30,487 bases of DNA. Source: a virus. Taxonomy: Duplodnaviria > Heunggongvirae > Uroviricota > Caudoviricetes. The notes below the pieces were generated by a model. The model ran no database searches, was not told the origin of the DNA, and was given only the letters and a program-made list of their open reading frames with translations. Within the stretch, counting starts at the first letter, position 1. The number at the start of each line of letters is the position of its first letter. This document shows, piece after piece, positions 1 to 26,725 of this stretch. Location: the IMG/VR virus record IMGVR_UViG_646311924_000014; one strand, 5' to 3'. The translations under genes were made by a program, and so were the position numbers.

Positions 1-1236
1 CTATGATAACCGCGCATTCAACATGGCTACCTGTTCGTCGTTCATGTCATCAATCCACATACCGTAAATTTCATACACCATCTGCGCAGTTTCATGCCCC
101 ATTTGGCTGGCTATAAATGCCGGGTTCGCTCCTGCCGTCAACAGCCAGCAGGCAAAAGTATGCCGCGTATGGTACGGATTACGGCGGCGAATACCAGCAC
201 GTTTTACTGCTGCATTCCACCTTGCCCCCAAACTGCTTACCGAGTAATAAGGTTTTTGTTTTCCGTTACACACCCTGGGCATGAAAACAAAATGCAGTTT
301 TTGCTTTTCGGTTCTGCCGTACTCCCGATGATAAAAGGTGATTTCGCTTTTGCGATGATGCCCGGTCAGTTTGTATTGCTCCTTCAGTGCTTCAAGAGCA
401 GGCTGCAGTAGTGTTACCGTCCGGATCCCCGCATTTGTTTTTGGGGGACCGAACATATCCAGTATCGTCAGGTTTCTTCTGACATTCACAACTCCCTTCT
501 CGAAATCCACATCCTCCCACGCCAGAGCAGCCAGTTCCCCGTGACGAAGCCCGGAGTATACGGCAAATTTCCACAAGTTCTGGCTCTGTCCTTTTTCACT
601 TTCCATTAATGCATTGAATTCTGTTTTAGATAACGGGTCAGGCTTTATTCTGTTTCTCTGTAATTTCTTTACTCCTTCAAATGGTTTGGTTGATATAAAT
701 CCCGACTGATACGCAAAACGTAACAACGAACAGAGCAGGGCGATATAGTTATCAACTGTGCGCACGGTTCTTCCTTTTTTGTTGGATCTTGGATTATCCA
801 GGTAAAGCGTTTCTCCATGCAGCAGTTCATTCCGGTAGTTTAAGATATCGCTATAACGAATATGCGATATCGGAGTACTCTCACAAATTATTATCCTGAG
901 TGTTTTTAATTGTGATTTCGTTTTCTTCATTGTGTTTGTTGTTAACTCTGTTTCTTTAATTTTTGTCCAGATATCACAAAGCTCCCCGAACGTTTTTATG
1001 ACCCTCGTTGTCACCATTTTTGCCCCAGTGCTGGACTGGGGAAAACGTCTTAAATACTCAAACTCACCGGAATTGATTTCATGAACTATCAACGCTCTTA
1101 AATTCCCGGCTTTTTTAATGTTACTGTTAGTAACCTCCCAGCCTTTCAATGTTTCCCGACATCGTTTTCCTCGAAACATGAACCAGATGCGAATGTATTT
1201 ACCTCGAATCTCGACACCTGTTGGTAATTTAGACAT
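1..1236 (-). CDS. int: Phage tyrosine integrase (411 aa), Rac/lambdoid type; stop codon is at window position 1-3
   Basis: Full-length minus-strand ORF; C-terminal region carries the R...HxxR...Y catalytic pattern of tyrosine recombinases (HTRHTFA... YxxY); sits next to an excisionase-like gene. Confidence 0.9.
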   Translation of the reverse strand: MSKLPTGVEIRGKYIRIWFMFRGKRCRETLKGWEVTNSNIKKAGNLRALIVHEINSGEFEYLRRFPQSSTGAKMVTTRVIKTFGELCDIWTKIKETELTTNTMKKTKSQLKTLRIIICESTPISHIRYSDILNYRNELLHGETLYLDNPRSNKKGRTVRTVDNYIALLCSLLRFAYQSGFISTKPFEGVKKLQRNRIKPDPLSKTEFNALMESEKGQSQNLWKFAVYSGLRHGELAALAWEDVDFEKGVVNVRRNLTILDMFGPPKTNAGIRTVTLLQPALEALKEQYKLTGHHRKSEITFYHREYGRTEKQKLHFVFMPRVCNGKQKPYYSVSSLGARWNAAVKRAGIRRRNPYHTRHTFACWLLTAGANPAFIASQMGHETAQMVYEIYGMWIDDMNDEQVAMLNARLS

Positions 1237-1237
1237 A

Positions 1238-1453
1238 TCATGAGTCTTTGATAAACTGATTTATCTTTGGATAGTTATACCAGATAATCCCTCGCTTACT
1301 GTCTGGCTTCCCTAAAGGAGATACTCGTTTGAAGTGGAAGCCTTCCACCCAACAGTTCTGGCGGTATGCTTCAATTTGTCTGGCCCCCAGACCAGTGCGA
1401 AGCATCAGGCCGTATTCAACCATCCACTCTTCATTAAAGATTACTTGTGCCAT
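1238..1453 (-). CDS. xis: Excisionase-like small DNA-binding protein (71 aa from the internal ATG MAQVIF...)
   Basis: Small ORF immediately upstream of int on the same strand (stop at 1238-1240, int start at 1236); size and position typical of xis; start chosen at ATG 1451-1453. Confidence 0.6.
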
Positions 1454-1552
1454 CGCATCACCTCTGGCAGGCGCCAATGTTAGACTTAAATTGACGCCCG
1501 ATGTTGATTATTAATAATCAGCTATGAAGTTTTAATTTGAATACAATGCAAT

Positions 1553-1813
1553 TCACGAGGACTGAAGTTTCTCGCAATTAAAATTTATCAGTTTTACTTT
1601 CTGCTCTCTGGAAACGCCTGCTTCTTTTTTACCTGAGAGCATTTTTTCGCATTCTGATTTCGTTAGTTTAGATTTTGAATATCTTGTCCAGTTAGTAGGA
1701 GTGCCACCTTCCTTTTCAATAGTGGCGGTAATTTTATACATGAACACCTCCATTATTATTTCCAGTGGTTCGTTTATTTCATCGTTCGAGTGCTTCTTTT
1801 TCACTTCCACCAT
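1553..1813 (-). CDS. Hypothetical prophage early-region protein (86 aa)
   Basis: ORF with ATG start, same strand as int/xis, Lys-rich; no family recognised; overlaps the 3' end of the Lar-like ORF in another frame. Confidence 0.4.
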   Translation of the reverse strand: MVEVKKKHSNDEINEPLEIIMEVFMYKITATIEKEGGTPTNWTRYSKSKLTKSECEKMLSGKKEAGVSREQKVKLINFNCEKLQSS

Positions 1814-1940
1814 AACCGGTTCGGGATTCGCATCCGTTACACTTCGCTCGGTAATATCCTGAAATGGCTTTCACCGTTACTGATGGACAACCACAAAATG
1901 GACATGGTTTAACATTGTCATATCTCATAATTTTTCTCAT
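1779..1940 (-). CDS. Lar/RalR-like restriction-alleviation protein (53 aa, Cys4 motif)
   Basis: Hand translation: MRKIMRYDNVKPCPFCGCPSVTVKAISGYYRAKCNGCESRTGYGGSEKEALER; CPFCGC...CNGC zinc-ribbon pattern and position next to recT as in the Rac prophage; below the 60-aa cut-off of the ORF track. Confidence 0.5.
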   Translation of the reverse strand: MRKIMRYDNVKPCPFCGCPSVTVKAISGYYRAKCNGCESRTGYGGSEKEALER

Positions 1941-1983
1941 AAAAATATTTCAAGTTGGCGGTGCATTACACCGCCAGGCTGAA

Positions 1984-2196
1984 TTATTCCTCTGAATTAT
2001 CGATTACACTGTATTCCCCGGTTAATACAGAGGAATCTGCAGGATCGATTGTCAGTGGTTCCTTTTCATCCATTGATACTGCACGCTGGATCTCAATTGA
2101 TACGGGCAGATATTTGAACAGGCGACGAATAGCCGTTTTCTTTGCCATTTCTTCCCAGTGAGTTACCCACGGCCCGTTATTACCAGCTTTACTCTG
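1984..2196 (-). pseudogene. recT: 3' fragment of recT (ssDNA-annealing recombinase), truncated by IS629
   Basis: Minus-strand frame open from the IS boundary to TAA at 1984-1986, encoding ...WEEMAKKTAIRRLFKYLPVSIEIQRAVSMDEKEPLTIDPADSSVLTGEYSVIDNSEE, recalled as the RecT C-terminus; no upstream part of the gene exists on the other side of the IS. Confidence 0.6.
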
Positions 2197-2238
2197 TGAA
2201 CCGCCCCGGGTTTCCTGGAGAGTGTTTTATCTGTGAAC

Positions 2239-3129
2239 TCAGGCTGCCAGATCATCGTTTCCGATGGAAGCATAATAAGCTTTTTCTGCTTCTGCCGGAG
2301 GAGTATGGCCCAGCCTTCCCAGCAATCGTCGATTGTTATACCAGTCCACCCACGTTAGTGTGGCCAGTTCCACTTCTGCACGGTTTTTCCAGCTCTTACG
2401 GTGTATTACCTCCGCTTTGTAAAGACCATTGATGCTCTCAGCCATCGCGTTGTCATACGAGTCGCCTGTACTCCCTGTTGATGCCAGTAATCCGGCTTCT
2501 TTTAGTCGCTCCGTATAGGCCAGTGACACATACTGAGAGCCTTTATCGCTGTGATGGATGGTGCCAGACGGACGACGGGCCCACAACGCCTGCTCCAGCG
2601 CATCCAGCACGAATGTCGTTTCCATAGACGATGAGACCCGCCACCCCACGATGTATCCGGCAAACACATCAATGATAAACGCCACATAGACGAAGCCCTG
2701 CCATGTGCTGACGTAAGTAAAATCAGCCACCCACAGCTGGTCAGGTCGTTCTGCCACGAACTGACGGTTTACGCGGTCGCCTGCGGCAACGGCTTTCCGG
2801 CTGATGGTCGTACGGACCTTTTTACCCCGGAGAACACCGGCAAGTCCCATAACCGCCATGAGACGTGCCACTGTACATCTGGCCACCCTGATTCCTTCCC
2901 GTAACAACTGACGCCAGACTTTACGCACACCGTACACCTGATGATTTTCATCGTATACGCGCTGTATCTCTCTCTTCAGCCAGTCGTCGTGCTGCGCACG
3001 GGCACTGCGTTTATCCGGATGATGTCGCTGTTGCTGACAATGGTAATACGTTGACGGGGCAATATGCAGTTCGCTGCATACCGGTCCGACCCCGTACTGC
3101 TCACGCAGCTTATCCAGCAGTGGCATCAT
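2239..3129 (-). CDS. IS629 OrfB (DDE transposase catalytic domain, 296 aa; expressed as OrfAB by -1 frameshift)
   Basis: IS3-family OrfB sequence pattern (…HSDKGSQY…YDNAMAES…); starts at ATGATG directly after the A6 run that ends orfA. Confidence 0.9.
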
Positions 3130-3452
3130 TTTTTCCAGAGGCGGTCGAACTCCGCCTTCGCAAAATAAGCGGAAGCCTGGCGAAGGATATCGTTACTGCG
3201 GCGCAGTTCACGATTTTCACGTTCCAGCTCTTTCAGACGCTGACGTTCAGCGCTGGTGAGCCCACCATCACCGCCCCCGGTATCCCGCTCATGCTGGCGA
3301 ACCCAGACACGCAGAGTCTCCGGCGTACAGCCAATCTTTGGGGCAATGGAACAAATTGCCGCCCACTGTGAGTCATATTCATCCTGACTTTCCAGAACCA
3401 TACGAATCGCCCGCTGACGGACTTCGGGGGAAAAACGAGTATTTTTAGTCAT
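3126..3452 (-). CDS. IS629 OrfA (HTH transposase N-terminal protein, 108 aa)
   Basis: [23 protein letters not shown]... with a leucine-zipper-like C-terminus, typical IS3-family OrfA. Confidence 0.9.
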
Positions 3453-3510
3453 CCTGTTTACCTCTTTCTCAGGGAGTTTAGTCTCCAGGATTTCCGGGGC
3501 GGTTCAGTTT

Positions 3511-3705
3511 TTGTTGGAGAACGGAATAATGTATCGCCTCGCTGGAAAAATGACGCCTTACTCGCATCACCTGGATGCGGGGCGGTTTAGCGTGAAAACG
3601 GGCGAGGCGGGCAATGGTCATGCTTTTACGCAGGTTAAATTCACCCCAAAAGGTGTTCAGTGGATTGCTGGTCTGCTTGCTGCATGGAGAGCTACCGCAG
3701 CATGA
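3511..3705 (+). pseudogene. Truncated ORF abutting the right end of IS629; probable 3' remnant of a lysis-region gene (antirepressor or endolysin?)
   Basis: Open frame starts 5 bp after the IS end with no plausible ATG or RBS; lies just upstream of Rz; identity not recognised. Confidence 0.25.
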
Positions 3706-3942
3706 AGATGATAAAAACGGACTGGAAATTTTTGCTGGTCTGGCTGATTCCGTTTTTATGGGTGGTTGCCCGGTTAATTACTGCTATTAAGGGGTAAAGA
3801 TGTCAGACAAACTCATAATGCTGGCGAAGGGCCTTTGTGTAATCGTCGGTATTTCATTTTCACTAATGCTGGTTGTTCTTTTTCTTTCCATAACCTGGAT
3901 GGCGTTGACTTCGGCAGGGCTGGTGGGGTGAGCATAAACCGA

Positions 3943-4401
3943 ATGCTTTCCGCGTTTACCGTTATTCTGCTGGTGGTCTGTGGTGCGCTTAGTCTGGGGC
4001 TGAATCATTACCGCGATAACGTCATCACCTACAAAGCGCAGCGCGATAAAAAAGCCAGAGAGCTGGAGCTGGCAAACGCAACCATTACTGATATGCAGGT
4101 GCGCCAGCGCGATGTTGCTGCGCTCGATGCAAAATACTCGAGGGAATTAGCCGATGCGAGAGCTGAAAATGAAACTCTGCGTGCTGATGTTGCCGCTGGT
4201 CGTAAGCGCCTGCGGATCAACGCCACCTGCTCCGGTACCGTGCGTGAAGCCACCGGCACCTCCGGCGTGGATAATGCAACCGTCCCCCGACTGGCAGACA
4301 CCGCTGAACGGGATTATTTCATCCTCAGAGAACGGTTGATGACAATGCAGAAGCAGCTGGAAGGGGCACAGGACTATATCCGCACTCAGTGCCTGAACTA
4401 A
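3943..4401 (+). CDS. Rz: Rz inner-membrane spanin (i-spanin)
   Basis: N-terminal TM segment then coiled-coil; strong similarity to recalled lambda Rz (…NHYRDN.ITYKAQRDK.ARELELANA.ITDMQ.RQRDVAALDAKY…ERDYF.LRERL.TMQKQLEG.Q.YI…); ATG at 3943 chosen over the TTG at 3835 reported by the ORF track. Confidence 0.85.
   Translation: MLSAFTVILLVVCGALSLGLNHYRDNVITYKAQRDKKARELELANATITDMQVRQRDVAALDAKYSRELADARAENETLRADVAAGRKRLRINATCSGTVREATGTSGVDNATVPRLADTAERDYFILRERLMTMQKQLEGAQDYIRTQCLN
4154..4339 (+). CDS. Rz1: Rz1 outer-membrane lipoprotein spanin (o-spanin), embedded in Rz in the +1 frame
   Basis: Lipobox (LVVSAC) followed by a Pro-rich segment (CVKPPAPPAWIMQPSPDWQTPLNGII), matching lambda Rz1; fully nested within Rz. 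Confidence 0.8.
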   Translation: MRELKMKLCVLMLPLVVSACGSTPPAPVPCVKPPAPPAWIMQPSPDWQTPLNGIISSSENG

Positions 4402-4739
4402 GTTTTGCTGATGCGCCGTATCGTCGCTGTATTCCCTCATTAACAGAGACCGCAGCCCGACAGGGAGACTCCTCTGCGCGAGTGTGCGGGGAGAATCAAA
4501 AACGATACGCACCGGGGTTTACCGCGTTAACGGAGCGCGGCGTTGTCCCCTCATGGTCGCTGGTTCGGTGCGATGGTGGAAGAAACCGGACGATGTGTTA
4601 CCTCGCAAGACCTGTTATGTCATGTGTCTGATTTGTGATTTAAGTCGGATAATTGTCGTTGCCATTAAGCAGAGGATTGATGGCCGACAGGGTGGCATTG
4701 TTAGAATAAGACTTATTCTTATCTGTGCCGGGAATGAAA

Positions 4740-5066
4740 ATGAAAAGAAATCTTCCGTTAATTATTTTGTTGTCTTCTCTGGTTATGGGCTGTACGCAAC
4801 ATAAAACAGATATGCCCCGACAGTTGGTTAAGGCATTACCACAATATCCGGCCTATGCAGCGGCAAATTATATAAAGGGACGGGTTGATGTGAAGTTTGA
4901 TATTGGTGCTGATGGTACTGTCACCCGAATTGAGTTTATCCGTTCAGAGCCGCACCATCTGTTTGATGAGCAGGTTGTAAAGGCGATGGCAAAATGGCGA
5001 TTTGAGAAGGACAGGCCGCGTAAAGGCGTGAAGAAAACGTTTATCTTTAGTCCTTCTGCACCCTGA
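4740..5066 (+). CDS. Lipoprotein consisting of a TonB C-terminal-like domain (about 108 aa)
   Basis: Signal peptide with lipobox (LSSLVMGC); mature part LPQYPAYAAANYIKGRVDVKFDIGADGTVTRIEFIRSEPHHLFDEQVVKAMAKWRFE aligns by eye with E. coli TonB CTD ([34 protein letters not shown]...FEREVKNAMRRWRYE); start taken at ATG 4740. Confidence 0.6.
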   Translation: MKRNLPLIILLSSLVMGCTQHKTDMPRQLVKALPQYPAYAAANYIKGRVDVKFDIGADGTVTRIEFIRSEPHHLFDEQVVKAMAKWRFEKDRPRKGVKKTFIFSPSAP

Positions 5067-5197
5067 TTATTTCATCAGAAATTAATTATCACTCTGTTGT
5101 TATTCTGTACATTCCGGCTGGGTAAGTCTTGTTCCGCCGGGTATGAAGATGAAATATTGTTGGAGGACAGTGGGTACCTGCTCCTGTAACCGAACGT

Positions 5198-5398
5198 TCA
5201 TTTCTCGTTATTTGTCATGCTGGCCGGACGCAGATGCGTTGCATCTGTTGCCAGCCTTCTCCTGCAGGCTTCAATAACCCACGCTGAAAAGTTACCGGAA
5301 CCTTTATGTTCAAGGGCGATATTGATCTGTTCAATCATGTGATTGGGGAAACGGATATTGCGGGTTGTGGTTCTGCGGGTCCGGTTTTTCGATGACAT
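5198..5398 (-). CDS. YlcI/DUF3950-like small protein (66 aa), putative ribbon-helix-helix DNA-binding protein
   Basis: MSSKNRTRRTTTRNIRFPNHMIEQINIALEHKGSGNFSAWVIEACRRRL resembles recalled DLP12 YlcI; good RBS (AAAGGA) before ATG 5398; sits just upstream of the packaging genes. Confidence 0.5.
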   Translation of the reverse strand: MSSKNRTRRTTTRNIRFPNHMIEQINIALEHKGSGNFSAWVIEACRRRLATDATHLRPASMTNNEK

Positions 5399-5439
5399 AT
5401 TTATTTCCTTTACTGATTGCCATATGACGGGGATTTTAC

Positions 5440-5805
5440 ATGGCTGAGCTTCGTACACTCCAGAGCAGAATCAAAACACTGAATACCCGACGGGTGAATA
5501 TTCTGAAGGGTGAACAGCGTCGTGTCAGTGGCAGTGCACGTGTTTCCCTCAAGCGTCATATCTGGCTCAGGGATGCCGGGCAGTGCTGTCTCTGTGGTCG
5601 TGTGGTTGACCTCTGTGACAGTGAACTCGATCACCGAATTGCACTTCAGTTCGGTGGTGGTAATGAGGAGACGAATCTCTGGACGCTCTGTACCGAATGC
5701 CATCGACAAAAGTCTGCTCGTGAAGCGGCGGGTGGTATGCCGGACCCGACGCTGCCGGAGGTGTCCGGAGGTAGTGGCAGAGCGGACGACATCATCGGAC
5801 TGTAA
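5440..5805 (+). CDS. HNH endonuclease (packaging-associated)
   Basis: CxxC...DHRIALQFGG...N..LCTECH zinc-finger HNH motif; directly upstream of the terminase genes as in HK97-like cos phages. Confidence 0.85.
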   Translation: MAELRTLQSRIKTLNTRRVNILKGEQRRVSGSARVSLKRHIWLRDAGQCCLCGRVVDLCDSELDHRIALQFGGGNEETNLWTLCTECHRQKSAREAAGGMPDPTLPEVSGGSGRADDIIGL

Positions 5806-5895: not shown

Positions 5896-6021
5896 CAGTT
5901 AACATGTTAACTGGCTGTCCGGGCATTTTTGCGGTTTTTATCTTTATTATTCAGTTTGTTGTGCGAAAAAAATGTTAACTGGCTTTTTCATCAAATGTTA
6001 ACCAGGCAGCAGTTAACATTT
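5896..6021. promoter_or_regulatory. Candidate packaging (cos/terminase-recognition) region with five copies of ATGTTAAC in palindromic arrangement
   Basis: Perfect 18-bp palindrome CAGTTAACATGTTAACTG (5896-5913); AATGTTAACTGG (5971-5982); inverted pair AAATGTTAAC-N9-GTTAACATTT (5993-6021); located between HNH and terS. Confidence 0.35.
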
Positions 6022-21868: not shown

Positions 21869-21892
21869 GTAAGGGGCCCGCCCCTTACCTGA
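21869..21892 (-). terminator. 10-bp perfect stem-loop immediately downstream of sodC
   Basis: AGGTAAGGGG-CCCG-CCCCTTACCT, 5 bp beyond the sodC stop. Confidence 0.4.
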
Positions 21893-26125: not shown

Positions 26126-26725
26126 ATGCGTAAACTTTATGCCGCCATTTTGTCCGCAGCCATTTGTCTGACCGTATCCGGTGCGCCTGCATGGGCGTCT
26201 GAGCAGCAGGCCACGCTGAGCGCGGGGTATCTTCATGTCTCGACGAACGCTCCCGGTAGCGATAATCTTAACGGGATTAACGTGAAATACCGTTATGAAT
26301 TCACGGACACGCTGGGGCTGGTGACGTCATTCAGCTATGCAGGAGACAGGAATCGCCAGATTACCCGTTACAGCGATACCCGCTGGCATGAAGATTCCGT
26401 GCGTAACCGCTGGTTCAGCGTAATGGCGGGGCCGTCTGTGCGCGTGAATGAATGGTTCAGCGCGTATGCGATGGCGGGAGTGGCTTACAGCCGTGTGTCG
26501 ACTTTCTCCGGGGATTATCTCCGCGTAACTGACAACAAGGGGAAAACGCACGATGTGCTGACCGGAAGTGATGACGGTCGCCACAGCAACACGTCTCTGG
26601 CGTGGGGGGCTGGCGTGCAGTTTAACCCGACCGAATCCGTGGCCATTGATATTGCTTATGAAGGCTCCGGCAGTGGCGACTGGCGCACTGACGGTTTCAT
26701 CGTGGGTGTCGGTTATAAGTTCTGA
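26126..26725 (+). CDS. lom: Lom-like outer membrane protein (Ail/Lom/OmpX family)
   Basis: Signal peptide, alternating amphipathic beta-strand pattern, C-terminal aromatic (…GYKF); position after J as in lambda. Confidence 0.85.

Follow-up and report, generated by a model that had tools for sequence, protein, structure and literature searches.

A prophage lipoprotein consisting essentially of a TonB C-terminal domain, and its possible role as a TonB decoy

What use could a temperate phage have for the C-terminal domain (CTD) of TonB, once that domain is separated from the rest of the protein and placed behind a lipoprotein signal? The question is raised by IMG/VR virus record IMGVR_UViG_646311924_000014, a stretch of 30,487 nucleotides (nt), referred to here in its entirety as the window, which represents an O157:H7-type lambdoid prophage. 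From position 4400 onward its sequence recurs at 100% identity in many genomes of O157, O145 and O111, among them EDL933. In this prophage, an earlier sequence-only reading had noticed a gene for a lipoprotein whose mature part would be essentially a TonB CTD, and had suggested that the product acts as a decoy. The first part of this reading stands, on the profile matches, gapless alignment and lipobox described below; the second is weighed here against its alternatives and retained as a tentative proposal. The features that carry the argument are as follows, in window coordinates.

4740–5066, plus strand: coding sequence, stop included, of the 108-residue lipoprotein with a TonB CTD (supported by the open reading frame, the annotated start, Pfam, and the ratio of nonsynonymous to synonymous substitution, dN/dS)
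4730–4734, plus strand: Shine-Dalgarno-like GGGAA, 5 nt 5′ of the ATG at 4740, a plausible ribosome-binding site
4740–4793, plus strand: signal peptide and lipobox, MKRN / LPLIILLSSLV / LVMG-C, read from the sequence
4815–5051, plus strand: TonB CTD, residues 26–104, equivalent to residues 153–231 of Escherichia coli TonB (gapless alignment, AlphaFold, Foldseek)
5019–5048, plus strand: predicted β3 strand, residues 94–103 (the GVKKTFIFS region), equivalent to TonB 221–230 (model and alignment)

The domain is recognized by two profiles: Pfam TonB_C (PF03544) matches residues 36–103 at 5.5e-15, with a score of 56 bits where the cut-off is 24.6, and TIGR01352 matches at 2.6e-15 (56.5 bits against 27.1). 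Residues 26–104, 79 positions in all, align without gaps to the TonB CTD structures 1u07, 1xx3, 2gsk and 2grx (E ~5e-16), and 31 of 78 residues (40%) are identical to E. coli TonB 153–230. An AlphaFold model built from a 15-sequence family alignment reaches a predicted local distance difference test score of ~97 over residues 30–100 and displays the TonB order of helix-strand-strand-helix-strand, with helices at residues 38–42 and 76–83 and strands at 47–55, 61–70 and 94–103 forming a three-stranded sheet accompanied by two helices. The best Foldseek matches of this model are all TonB CTDs, including chain B of the BtuB:TonB complex (2gsk_B; root-mean-square deviation (rmsd) 1.0 Å over 79 columns, template modelling score 0.92), and the rmsd to the four structures named above lies between 1.0 and 1.4 Å. 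Each of the 13 matches in the PDB at E ≤ 0.001 is the CTD of TonB or of a homologue (FusB, TonB2), and three more TonB CTD structures appear in the same list at E 0.002–0.015; a library of predicted viral structures returned no significant Foldseek match. The profile search and structure prediction that the sequence-only reading had proposed as a check both arrive at the TonB CTD.

The residues shared with TonB are those of its fold and core. The YP motif is kept (Y36-P37, equivalent to TonB Y163-P164), as is the aromatic core of F53, F75, W86, F88 and F103, equivalent to TonB F180, F202, W213, Y215 and F230, in which only the Tyr at 215 has changed, to Phe. Outside the signal peptide, ten residues are invariant among the 15 family members (P26, P34, Y36, G47, V49, G59, P71, F75, W86 and P93) and F103 is nearly so; all 11 are identical in TonB (P153, P161, Y163, G174, V176, G186, P198, F202, W213, P220 and F230). 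In the 2gsk and 2grx complexes, the Ton box of the transporter reportedly pairs with β3 of TonB as an added strand. The model of the phage protein predicts that this β3 edge is intact, and only five residues (SPSAP) follow it.

What the phage protein lacks is equally distinctive. Whereas TonB carries an N-terminal transmembrane helix and a Pro-rich spacer, both are absent from the 108-residue protein, whose domain stands alone on a predicted outer-membrane lipid anchor and ends five residues after β3. The TonB equivalog models (NCBIfam PRK10819) give at best 73 bits, below cut-offs of 265–448, and the match is confined to profile positions 157–240 of 249, in agreement with the earlier claim that the energy-coupling N-terminal region of TonB is missing.

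The gene itself is readily delimited. The longest plus-strand open reading frame runs from 4725 to 5066 and contains the sole convincing plus-strand gene within 4400–5400; its start is the ATG at 4740, which is the one used by the Prokaryotic Genome Annotation Pipeline for the 100%-identical EDL933 copy (WP_000828070.1, annotated ‘TonB family protein’) and the only ATG retained in a sister allele. This sister allele, type B, also keeps AGGAA at the position equivalent to the GGGAA ribosome-binding site; the allele in the window is referred to as type A. The product begins with MKRNLPLIILLSSLVMGC and continues with TQHKTDM-PRQLV. Its n-region is basic, its hydrophobic core spans 11 residues and its lipobox closes with Cys18 (codon 4791–4793). 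Cys18 is invariant in a seven-sequence family alignment and 13 of 15 family members have a lipobox, with Thr at position +2 here and Ser or Ala in relatives. Lipidation at Cys18 is predicted from these features, and would leave a tether of eight residues between the lipid anchor and the domain. In E. coli, lipoproteins without Asp at +2 are sorted to the outer membrane, and it is by this rule only that an outer-membrane location is predicted for the phage protein.

The gene is both common and constrained. In a set of 5426 complete E. coli genomes, type A was found in 416, mostly of Shiga-toxin-producing lineages and usually as a single copy, and it also occurs in a few sequenced phages (Lys8385Vzw, JLK-2012 and four Stx1a phages). 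Type B, with 71% protein and 72% DNA identity to type A, was found in 1225 of the same genomes, and is present in the MNCRE44 prophage and in classical phage 21. Taken as a whole, the family occurs in 23%–30% of complete E. coli genomes, and O157:H7 strains as well as isolates from human patients are among its carriers. Between the two types dS is ~1.5 and dN/dS ~0.13 (0.10–0.17 against sister alleles), and such a ratio at this depth of divergence argues for strong purifying selection on the protein rather than for a decaying fragment.

Relatives outside E. coli place the gene in a family of its own. A Klebsiella phage encodes a lipoprotein homologue (40% identity) directly after its lysis genes and on the same strand, and an exhaustive profile search recovered more proteins of ~110 residues with a lipobox and a single TonB_C domain. 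In reference genomes, these small lipoproteins are encoded on the chromosomes of Raoultella, Klebsiella, Serratia and Erwinia. They have the same length and architecture as the phage protein and share with it the SEPxHLFD and KWRFE motifs. Since the phage domain is closer to these chromosomal lipoproteins (45–53% identity) than to TonB (40%), the phage gene appears to belong to a family of minimal TonB-domain lipoproteins and not to be a recently acquired piece of tonB.

How might such a protein serve a phage? The answer favoured here is that this accessory lipoprotein of the prophage acts as an unpowered competitor of TonB that captures Ton boxes. The protein would be exported and lipidated at Cys18, presenting a bare TonB CTD on its short tether, and, having neither transmembrane anchor nor Pro-rich rod, the domain could not be energized by ExbB/ExbD. 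When TonB-dependent transporters are loaded with ligand, its free β3 edge would capture their Ton boxes, as it would those of colicins that bear one, without performing work, and would thereby compete with the scarce TonB of the cell. Phage and lysogen would profit in that TonB-dependent phages (T1 and phi80 types), group B colicins and microcins enter less readily, at the cost of some loss of iron and B12 uptake. Transcription would proceed from a conserved extended −10 promoter (4699–4707) and, in intact phages, also by Q-antiterminated late read-through. Binding without work is to be expected because the β3 surface is kept and the link to ExbB/ExbD is absent, and from this we infer Ton-box binding, inhibition of TonB-dependent processes and a biological benefit. 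The decoy is proposed tentatively, as an account with slightly less than an even chance of being correct. The broader form of the proposal, in which a natural, phage-borne decoy of 10 kDa would by itself make lysogens broadly tolerant of TonB-dependent phages and of group B colicins and microcins, is doubtful.

Two precedents lend the decoy credibility, namely that exported fragments of TonB inhibit TonB-dependent transport and that the phage lipoproteins Llp and Cor act from the membrane leaflet predicted for the present protein. Howard et al. 2001 (J Bacteriol 183:5885), as recounted in PMC9841981, described that artificially exported periplasmic fragments abolish ferrichrome transport and bring about iron-limited growth, and the effect was repeated with an ompT(ss)-TonB(33-239) construct (bioRxiv 10.1101/2020.01.05.895219). 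The fragments likewise place the C-terminal region of TonB in the periplasm without a membrane anchor, but they are soluble, overexpressed laboratory constructs that include more of TonB, whereas the phage protein is natural, lipid-anchored and minimal. Part of the inhibition by fragments could moreover run via ExbD (bioRxiv 10.1101/2020.01.05.895219). Llp of T5 and Cor of phi80, N15, HK022 and mEp167 are, like the protein studied here, small phage lipoproteins. Their place is in the outer membrane, on its inner leaflet, where they bind FhuA at its periplasmic face; phages, ferrichrome and colicin M are all blocked (bioRxiv 10.64898/2026.03.26.714494). Together they form one family, with a fold that is unrelated to that of the TonB-CTD lipoprotein and that Foldseek has found in many small phage proteins (bioRxiv 10.64898/2026.03.26.714494); the present model, with no significant match in the viral structure library, does not join them. 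Llp and Cor are further specific to FhuA and act allosterically through its plug, whereas a decoy built from a TonB domain would target the Ton box common to such transporters.

If the proposal is true, the protein would be one more phage lipoprotein that acts from the periplasm to disable TonB-dependent receptors, but it would differ from the known ones in its fold and in its target, the Ton box common to all such receptors. The sequence-only reading had recognized no described phage function in the gene, and full-text searches of the literature found no functional study of it, while a 2024 review of superinfection exclusion lists Cor and nothing of the TonB-domain kind. The gene as such is no novelty, however, being routinely annotated: the phage 21 record names it ‘TonB C-terminal domain protein’ and members of its cluster carry generic names such as ‘TonB family protein’. 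Should the decoy be real, it would represent a new principle of superinfection exclusion and bacteriocin tolerance in which the common energy-coupling step is blocked rather than single receptors, and it would be a natural counterpart of the inhibitors of the TonB-Ton box interaction that are being designed as antibiotics (PMC9841981). Across a large share of pathogenic E. coli, it could then affect iron uptake, sensitivity to colicins and microcins, susceptibility to siderophore-conjugated antibiotics and the host range of phages used in therapy. Should the mechanism fail, a strongly conserved and very common family of prophage and chromosomal genes would still have been delineated.

Several observations weigh against the decoy. 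TonB Q160 and R166, which we take to be implicated in transporter contacts, are both replaced in the family, by Leu or Tyr and by an almost invariant Tyr, respectively. No PADLOC model matches the lipoprotein. A consensus promoter scan missed the extended −10, which has a poor −35, and the promoter and terminator scan found neither a plus-strand promoter nor a terminator at the gene. With the family present in 23%–30% of complete genomes, a strong constitutive block of TonB-dependent uptake is unlikely. No linkage of the gene to a receptor-binding type of J emerged among the carriers compared: the C-terminus of J in the window shares 95% identity with its mEp460 counterpart and 41% with that of lambda, and the carriers Lys8385Vzw and JLK-2012 have other types of J. 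Finally, the closest relatives beyond E. coli are not phage genes but sit stably on chromosomes, in conserved synteny with envelope genes; in five Raoultella and Klebsiella species, lacZ and lacI are followed by a Spy-like gene, then by a gene for a glycine-zipper lipoprotein and by the TonB_C lipoprotein gene. This arrangement suggests a housekeeping role at the envelope that need not concern phages.

The strongest alternative follows from that last point. The gene may have been borrowed from envelope physiology, its product binding a ligand other than the Ton box (peptidoglycan, another outer-membrane protein or ExbD) and helping to stabilize the envelope or to withstand stress; like the neighbouring bor/iss, it would be a factor of lysogenic conversion. 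The 45–53% identical relatives on the chromosomes of four genera and the company they keep, with genes for a Spy-like periplasmic protein and a glycine-zipper lipoprotein, speak for this explanation; so do the adjacency of the gene to bor/iss in phage 21 and the MNCRE44 prophage, and the departure of the family from TonB in its SEPxHLFD and KWRFE motifs and in the Tyr that stands for R166. Yet the residues that the family keeps are essentially the TonB core, the β3 edge is intact and nothing was found that points to another ligand, and a chromosomal version could equally be a brake applied by the host to its own TonB-dependent uptake. A role in envelope physiology away from the Ton box is consequently rated unlikely, although it survives better than the alternatives that follow.

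The position of the gene prompts a second alternative, for which the neighbouring lysis genes have to be introduced.

3943–4401, plus strand: Rz i-spanin (Pfam Phage_lysis 1.9e-49)
4154–4339, plus strand: Rz1 o-spanin, embedded in Rz (Pfam Rz1 7.7e-21)

In three diverged phage lineages, namely E. coli type A, E. coli type B (to which phage 21 belongs) and the Klebsiella phage whose homologue is 40% identical, the gene always lies directly 3′ of the lysis cassette and on the late strand, and the scans revealed no terminator that would separate it from Rz. Its product could accordingly be an accessory of the late phase, made together with the lysis proteins and active during lysis or afterwards, one that saves progeny from being lost on debris by modifying receptors of the outer membrane or that aids the spanins, and a full-length match to PHROG 1267 (1.9e-42), labelled ‘Rz-like spanin’, would seem to agree. 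The phage, however, has a genuine Rz/Rz1 pair, and the protein has neither the C-terminal transmembrane segment of a u-spanin nor any similarity to Rz1. The junction between lysis and terminase genes is a general hot spot for accessory genes (bor in lambda), many related phages are without the gene, and the prophage of the window has lost Q, holin and endolysin but keeps the gene intact. A late-phase or lysis function is regarded as quite unlikely. As a candidate identity in its own right, that of a spanin was rejected, there being no Rz1 match and the FIFSPSAP C-terminus not being hydrophobic, while the true Rz and Rz1 are those listed above; the label of phrog_1267 is very probably a misannotation of the TonB_C lipoprotein family.

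Returning to the decoy, its expression depends on the short region upstream of the gene, in which the sequence-only reading had seen a palindrome.

4699–4707, plus strand: extended −10-like TGTTAGAAT, candidate promoter of the module (one mismatch to TGnTATAAT)
4703–4719, no strand: perfect 8-1-8 palindrome, AGAATAAG-A-CTTATTCT, 20 nt before the ATG at 4740

Both the palindrome and its position over a −10-like element, which its left arm overlaps, are as that reading had described them. Its further proposal of operator control, whether by a phage repressor, by Fur or by some other regulator, was not supported by comparison. In favour of an operator, the site has the perfect 8-1-8 geometry of lambdoid operators, lies over the candidate −10 and start site, and is intact in 62 of 69 type A loci; another allele, which encodes a protein of 89% identity, shares all 40 nt of 4697–4736 but differs in the bases just upstream. 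Against it, a Markov simulation expects 0.44 perfect 8+8 palindromes with a 1-nt spacer per window, so that the palindrome alone is not beyond chance; for spacers of 0–3 nt, 2.0 ± 1.6 were expected and six observed in the window. Type B keeps 15 of the 16 bases of ATTGTyAGAATAAGAC, which comprises the −10 and left arm, despite saturated synonymous sites, but lacks the right arm. Among type A loci the −10 is invariant in all 67 compared in register, whereas the right arm is mismatched in five of 69. No site with three or fewer mismatches occurs elsewhere in the window or in JLK-2012 positions 1–35000, which include cI/cro, and the Fur-box consensus is matched at only 11 of 19 positions (manual count). 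The RNA folds of the 5′ and 3′ regions of the gene match those of shuffled sequences, with an unremarkable z of −1.0 for the palindrome region. The constrained element is, to judge from these alignments, probably the −10 of a promoter and not a two-fold symmetric operator, and repressor control through the palindrome has little probability, although a regulator specific to one lineage may act on it.

Two routes of expression would then be available to the gene. In an intact phage, read-through from the late promoter is to be expected, because no terminator separates the gene from Rz on one side or from the terminase genes on the other; in the strain of the window, the local promoter is the only possible source, because the prophage is without Q, holin and endolysin.

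That the gene might be an inert fragment of a captured tonB, as the names ‘partial tonB-like membrane protein’ (LR597643.1, phage ev017) and ‘TonB fragment’ (OV696612.1, phage Perceval) and the C-terminal frameshifts of several type B sequences could imply, is scarcely credible in view of a dN/dS of 0.10–0.17 with synonymous sites saturated, a lipoprotein signal peptide that was acquired and then conserved across lineages, intact copies in >1600 genomes and a closer kinship to the small-lipoprotein family than to TonB.

The gene order at the locus runs from Rz/Rz1 through the TonB-like gene and a convergent DUF3950 gene to the HNH endonuclease and terminase genes, and the TonB-like gene lies there in an accessory module, or ‘moron’.

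4591–5240 (approximate), plus strand: accessory module containing the TonB-like gene (comparison with Stx1_14040, G+C content, joint inheritance)
4402–4590, no strand: conserved non-coding segment 3′ of Rz, kept in phages with and without the module
5198–5398, minus strand: YlcI/YnfO (DUF3950) gene, convergent with the TonB-like gene (Pfam DUF3950 4.2e-20; EDL933 annotation)

In the Stx1 phage Stx1_14040, ~250 unrelated bases take the place of the module between conserved flanking genes, the presence/absence pattern of a moron. The module has a G+C content of 0.42–0.46 against 0.55–0.58 in its flanks and is conserved as a whole, at 95–100% identity, across the 416 genomes. The sequence-only reading had placed the gene ‘where lambda carries bor’, and this holds in part. 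Window positions 4412–4527, directly 3′ of Rz, are homologous to the region upstream of lambda bor, bor itself is absent from the window, and the TonB-like module fills the slot that follows this stretch. In phage 21 and the MNCRE44 prophage, bor/iss and the TonB-like gene are present side by side and in divergent orientation. Bor of lambda and Iss are, like the TonB-like lipoprotein, products of small lipoprotein genes in the accessory region that separates the lysis genes from cos/terminase in lambdoid prophages, but they have no relation to it in sequence or fold, and bor lies on the opposite strand whereas the TonB-like gene lies on that of the late genes.

The non-coding stretch of ~190 bp at 4402–4590 is also found in the region between bor/iss and the TonB-like gene of type B phages, and may hold a promoter of the bor side or another element. 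Rfam gave no match in 4300–5500, this segment included.

Some further features of the relatives merit mention. On Raoultella and Klebsiella chromosomes, a gene for a YagU/DUF1440 inner-membrane protein adjoins the TonB_C lipoprotein gene, and homologues of both (61% and 56% identity) flank the lysis cassette of Klebsiella phage ST13-OXA48phi12.4, at 1277–1903 and 4968–5336, which suggests joint capture or a functional link between the two. The C-termini of several type B relatives are frameshifted from around KWRFEK, one such cluster having 130 members; the frameshift removes β3 and could reflect assembly error, decay or switching. A type B metagenome contig carries, between the TonB-like gene and nu1, an open reading frame for a Cys-rich protein of 163 residues with a signal peptide (888–1379, minus strand), which has no Pfam match and is unannotated in the MNCRE44 and phage 21 records.

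Within the TonB-like gene, an antisense match to a sigma-70 promoter (TTCACA-16 nt-TATAAT, 11 of 12 positions; 4867–4894, minus strand) points towards the 5′ end; its −10 falls on conserved codons (N-Y-I) and its −35 is lost in type B. A perfect 18-bp palindrome, CAGTTAACATGTTAACTG, stands at 5896–5913, between the HNH endonuclease and small terminase genes, and may bear on the packaging of DNA or the cleavage of cos. The window has further perfect palindromes at 1505–1520, 10333–10350 and 21870–21887.

The left end of the window, positions 1–3900, gives the prophage a chimeric or defective appearance. It comprises a rac-type integrase gene (1–1236, minus strand), the RalA antitoxin small RNA (1557–1735; 225 bits) and an IS629/IS1203 element (2239–3452) with an ALIL frameshift pseudoknot (3055–3171), after which Rz follows directly, Q, holin and endolysin being the genes missing in between. 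As one piece, positions 1–5100 occur in no complete E. coli genome of the collection. Towards the other end, the window holds Lom at 26126–26725 and, downstream of the tail fibre gene, three tandem genes for type III effectors of the NleG family (28436–30487; Pfam T3SS_NleG 1e-43 to 1e-47).

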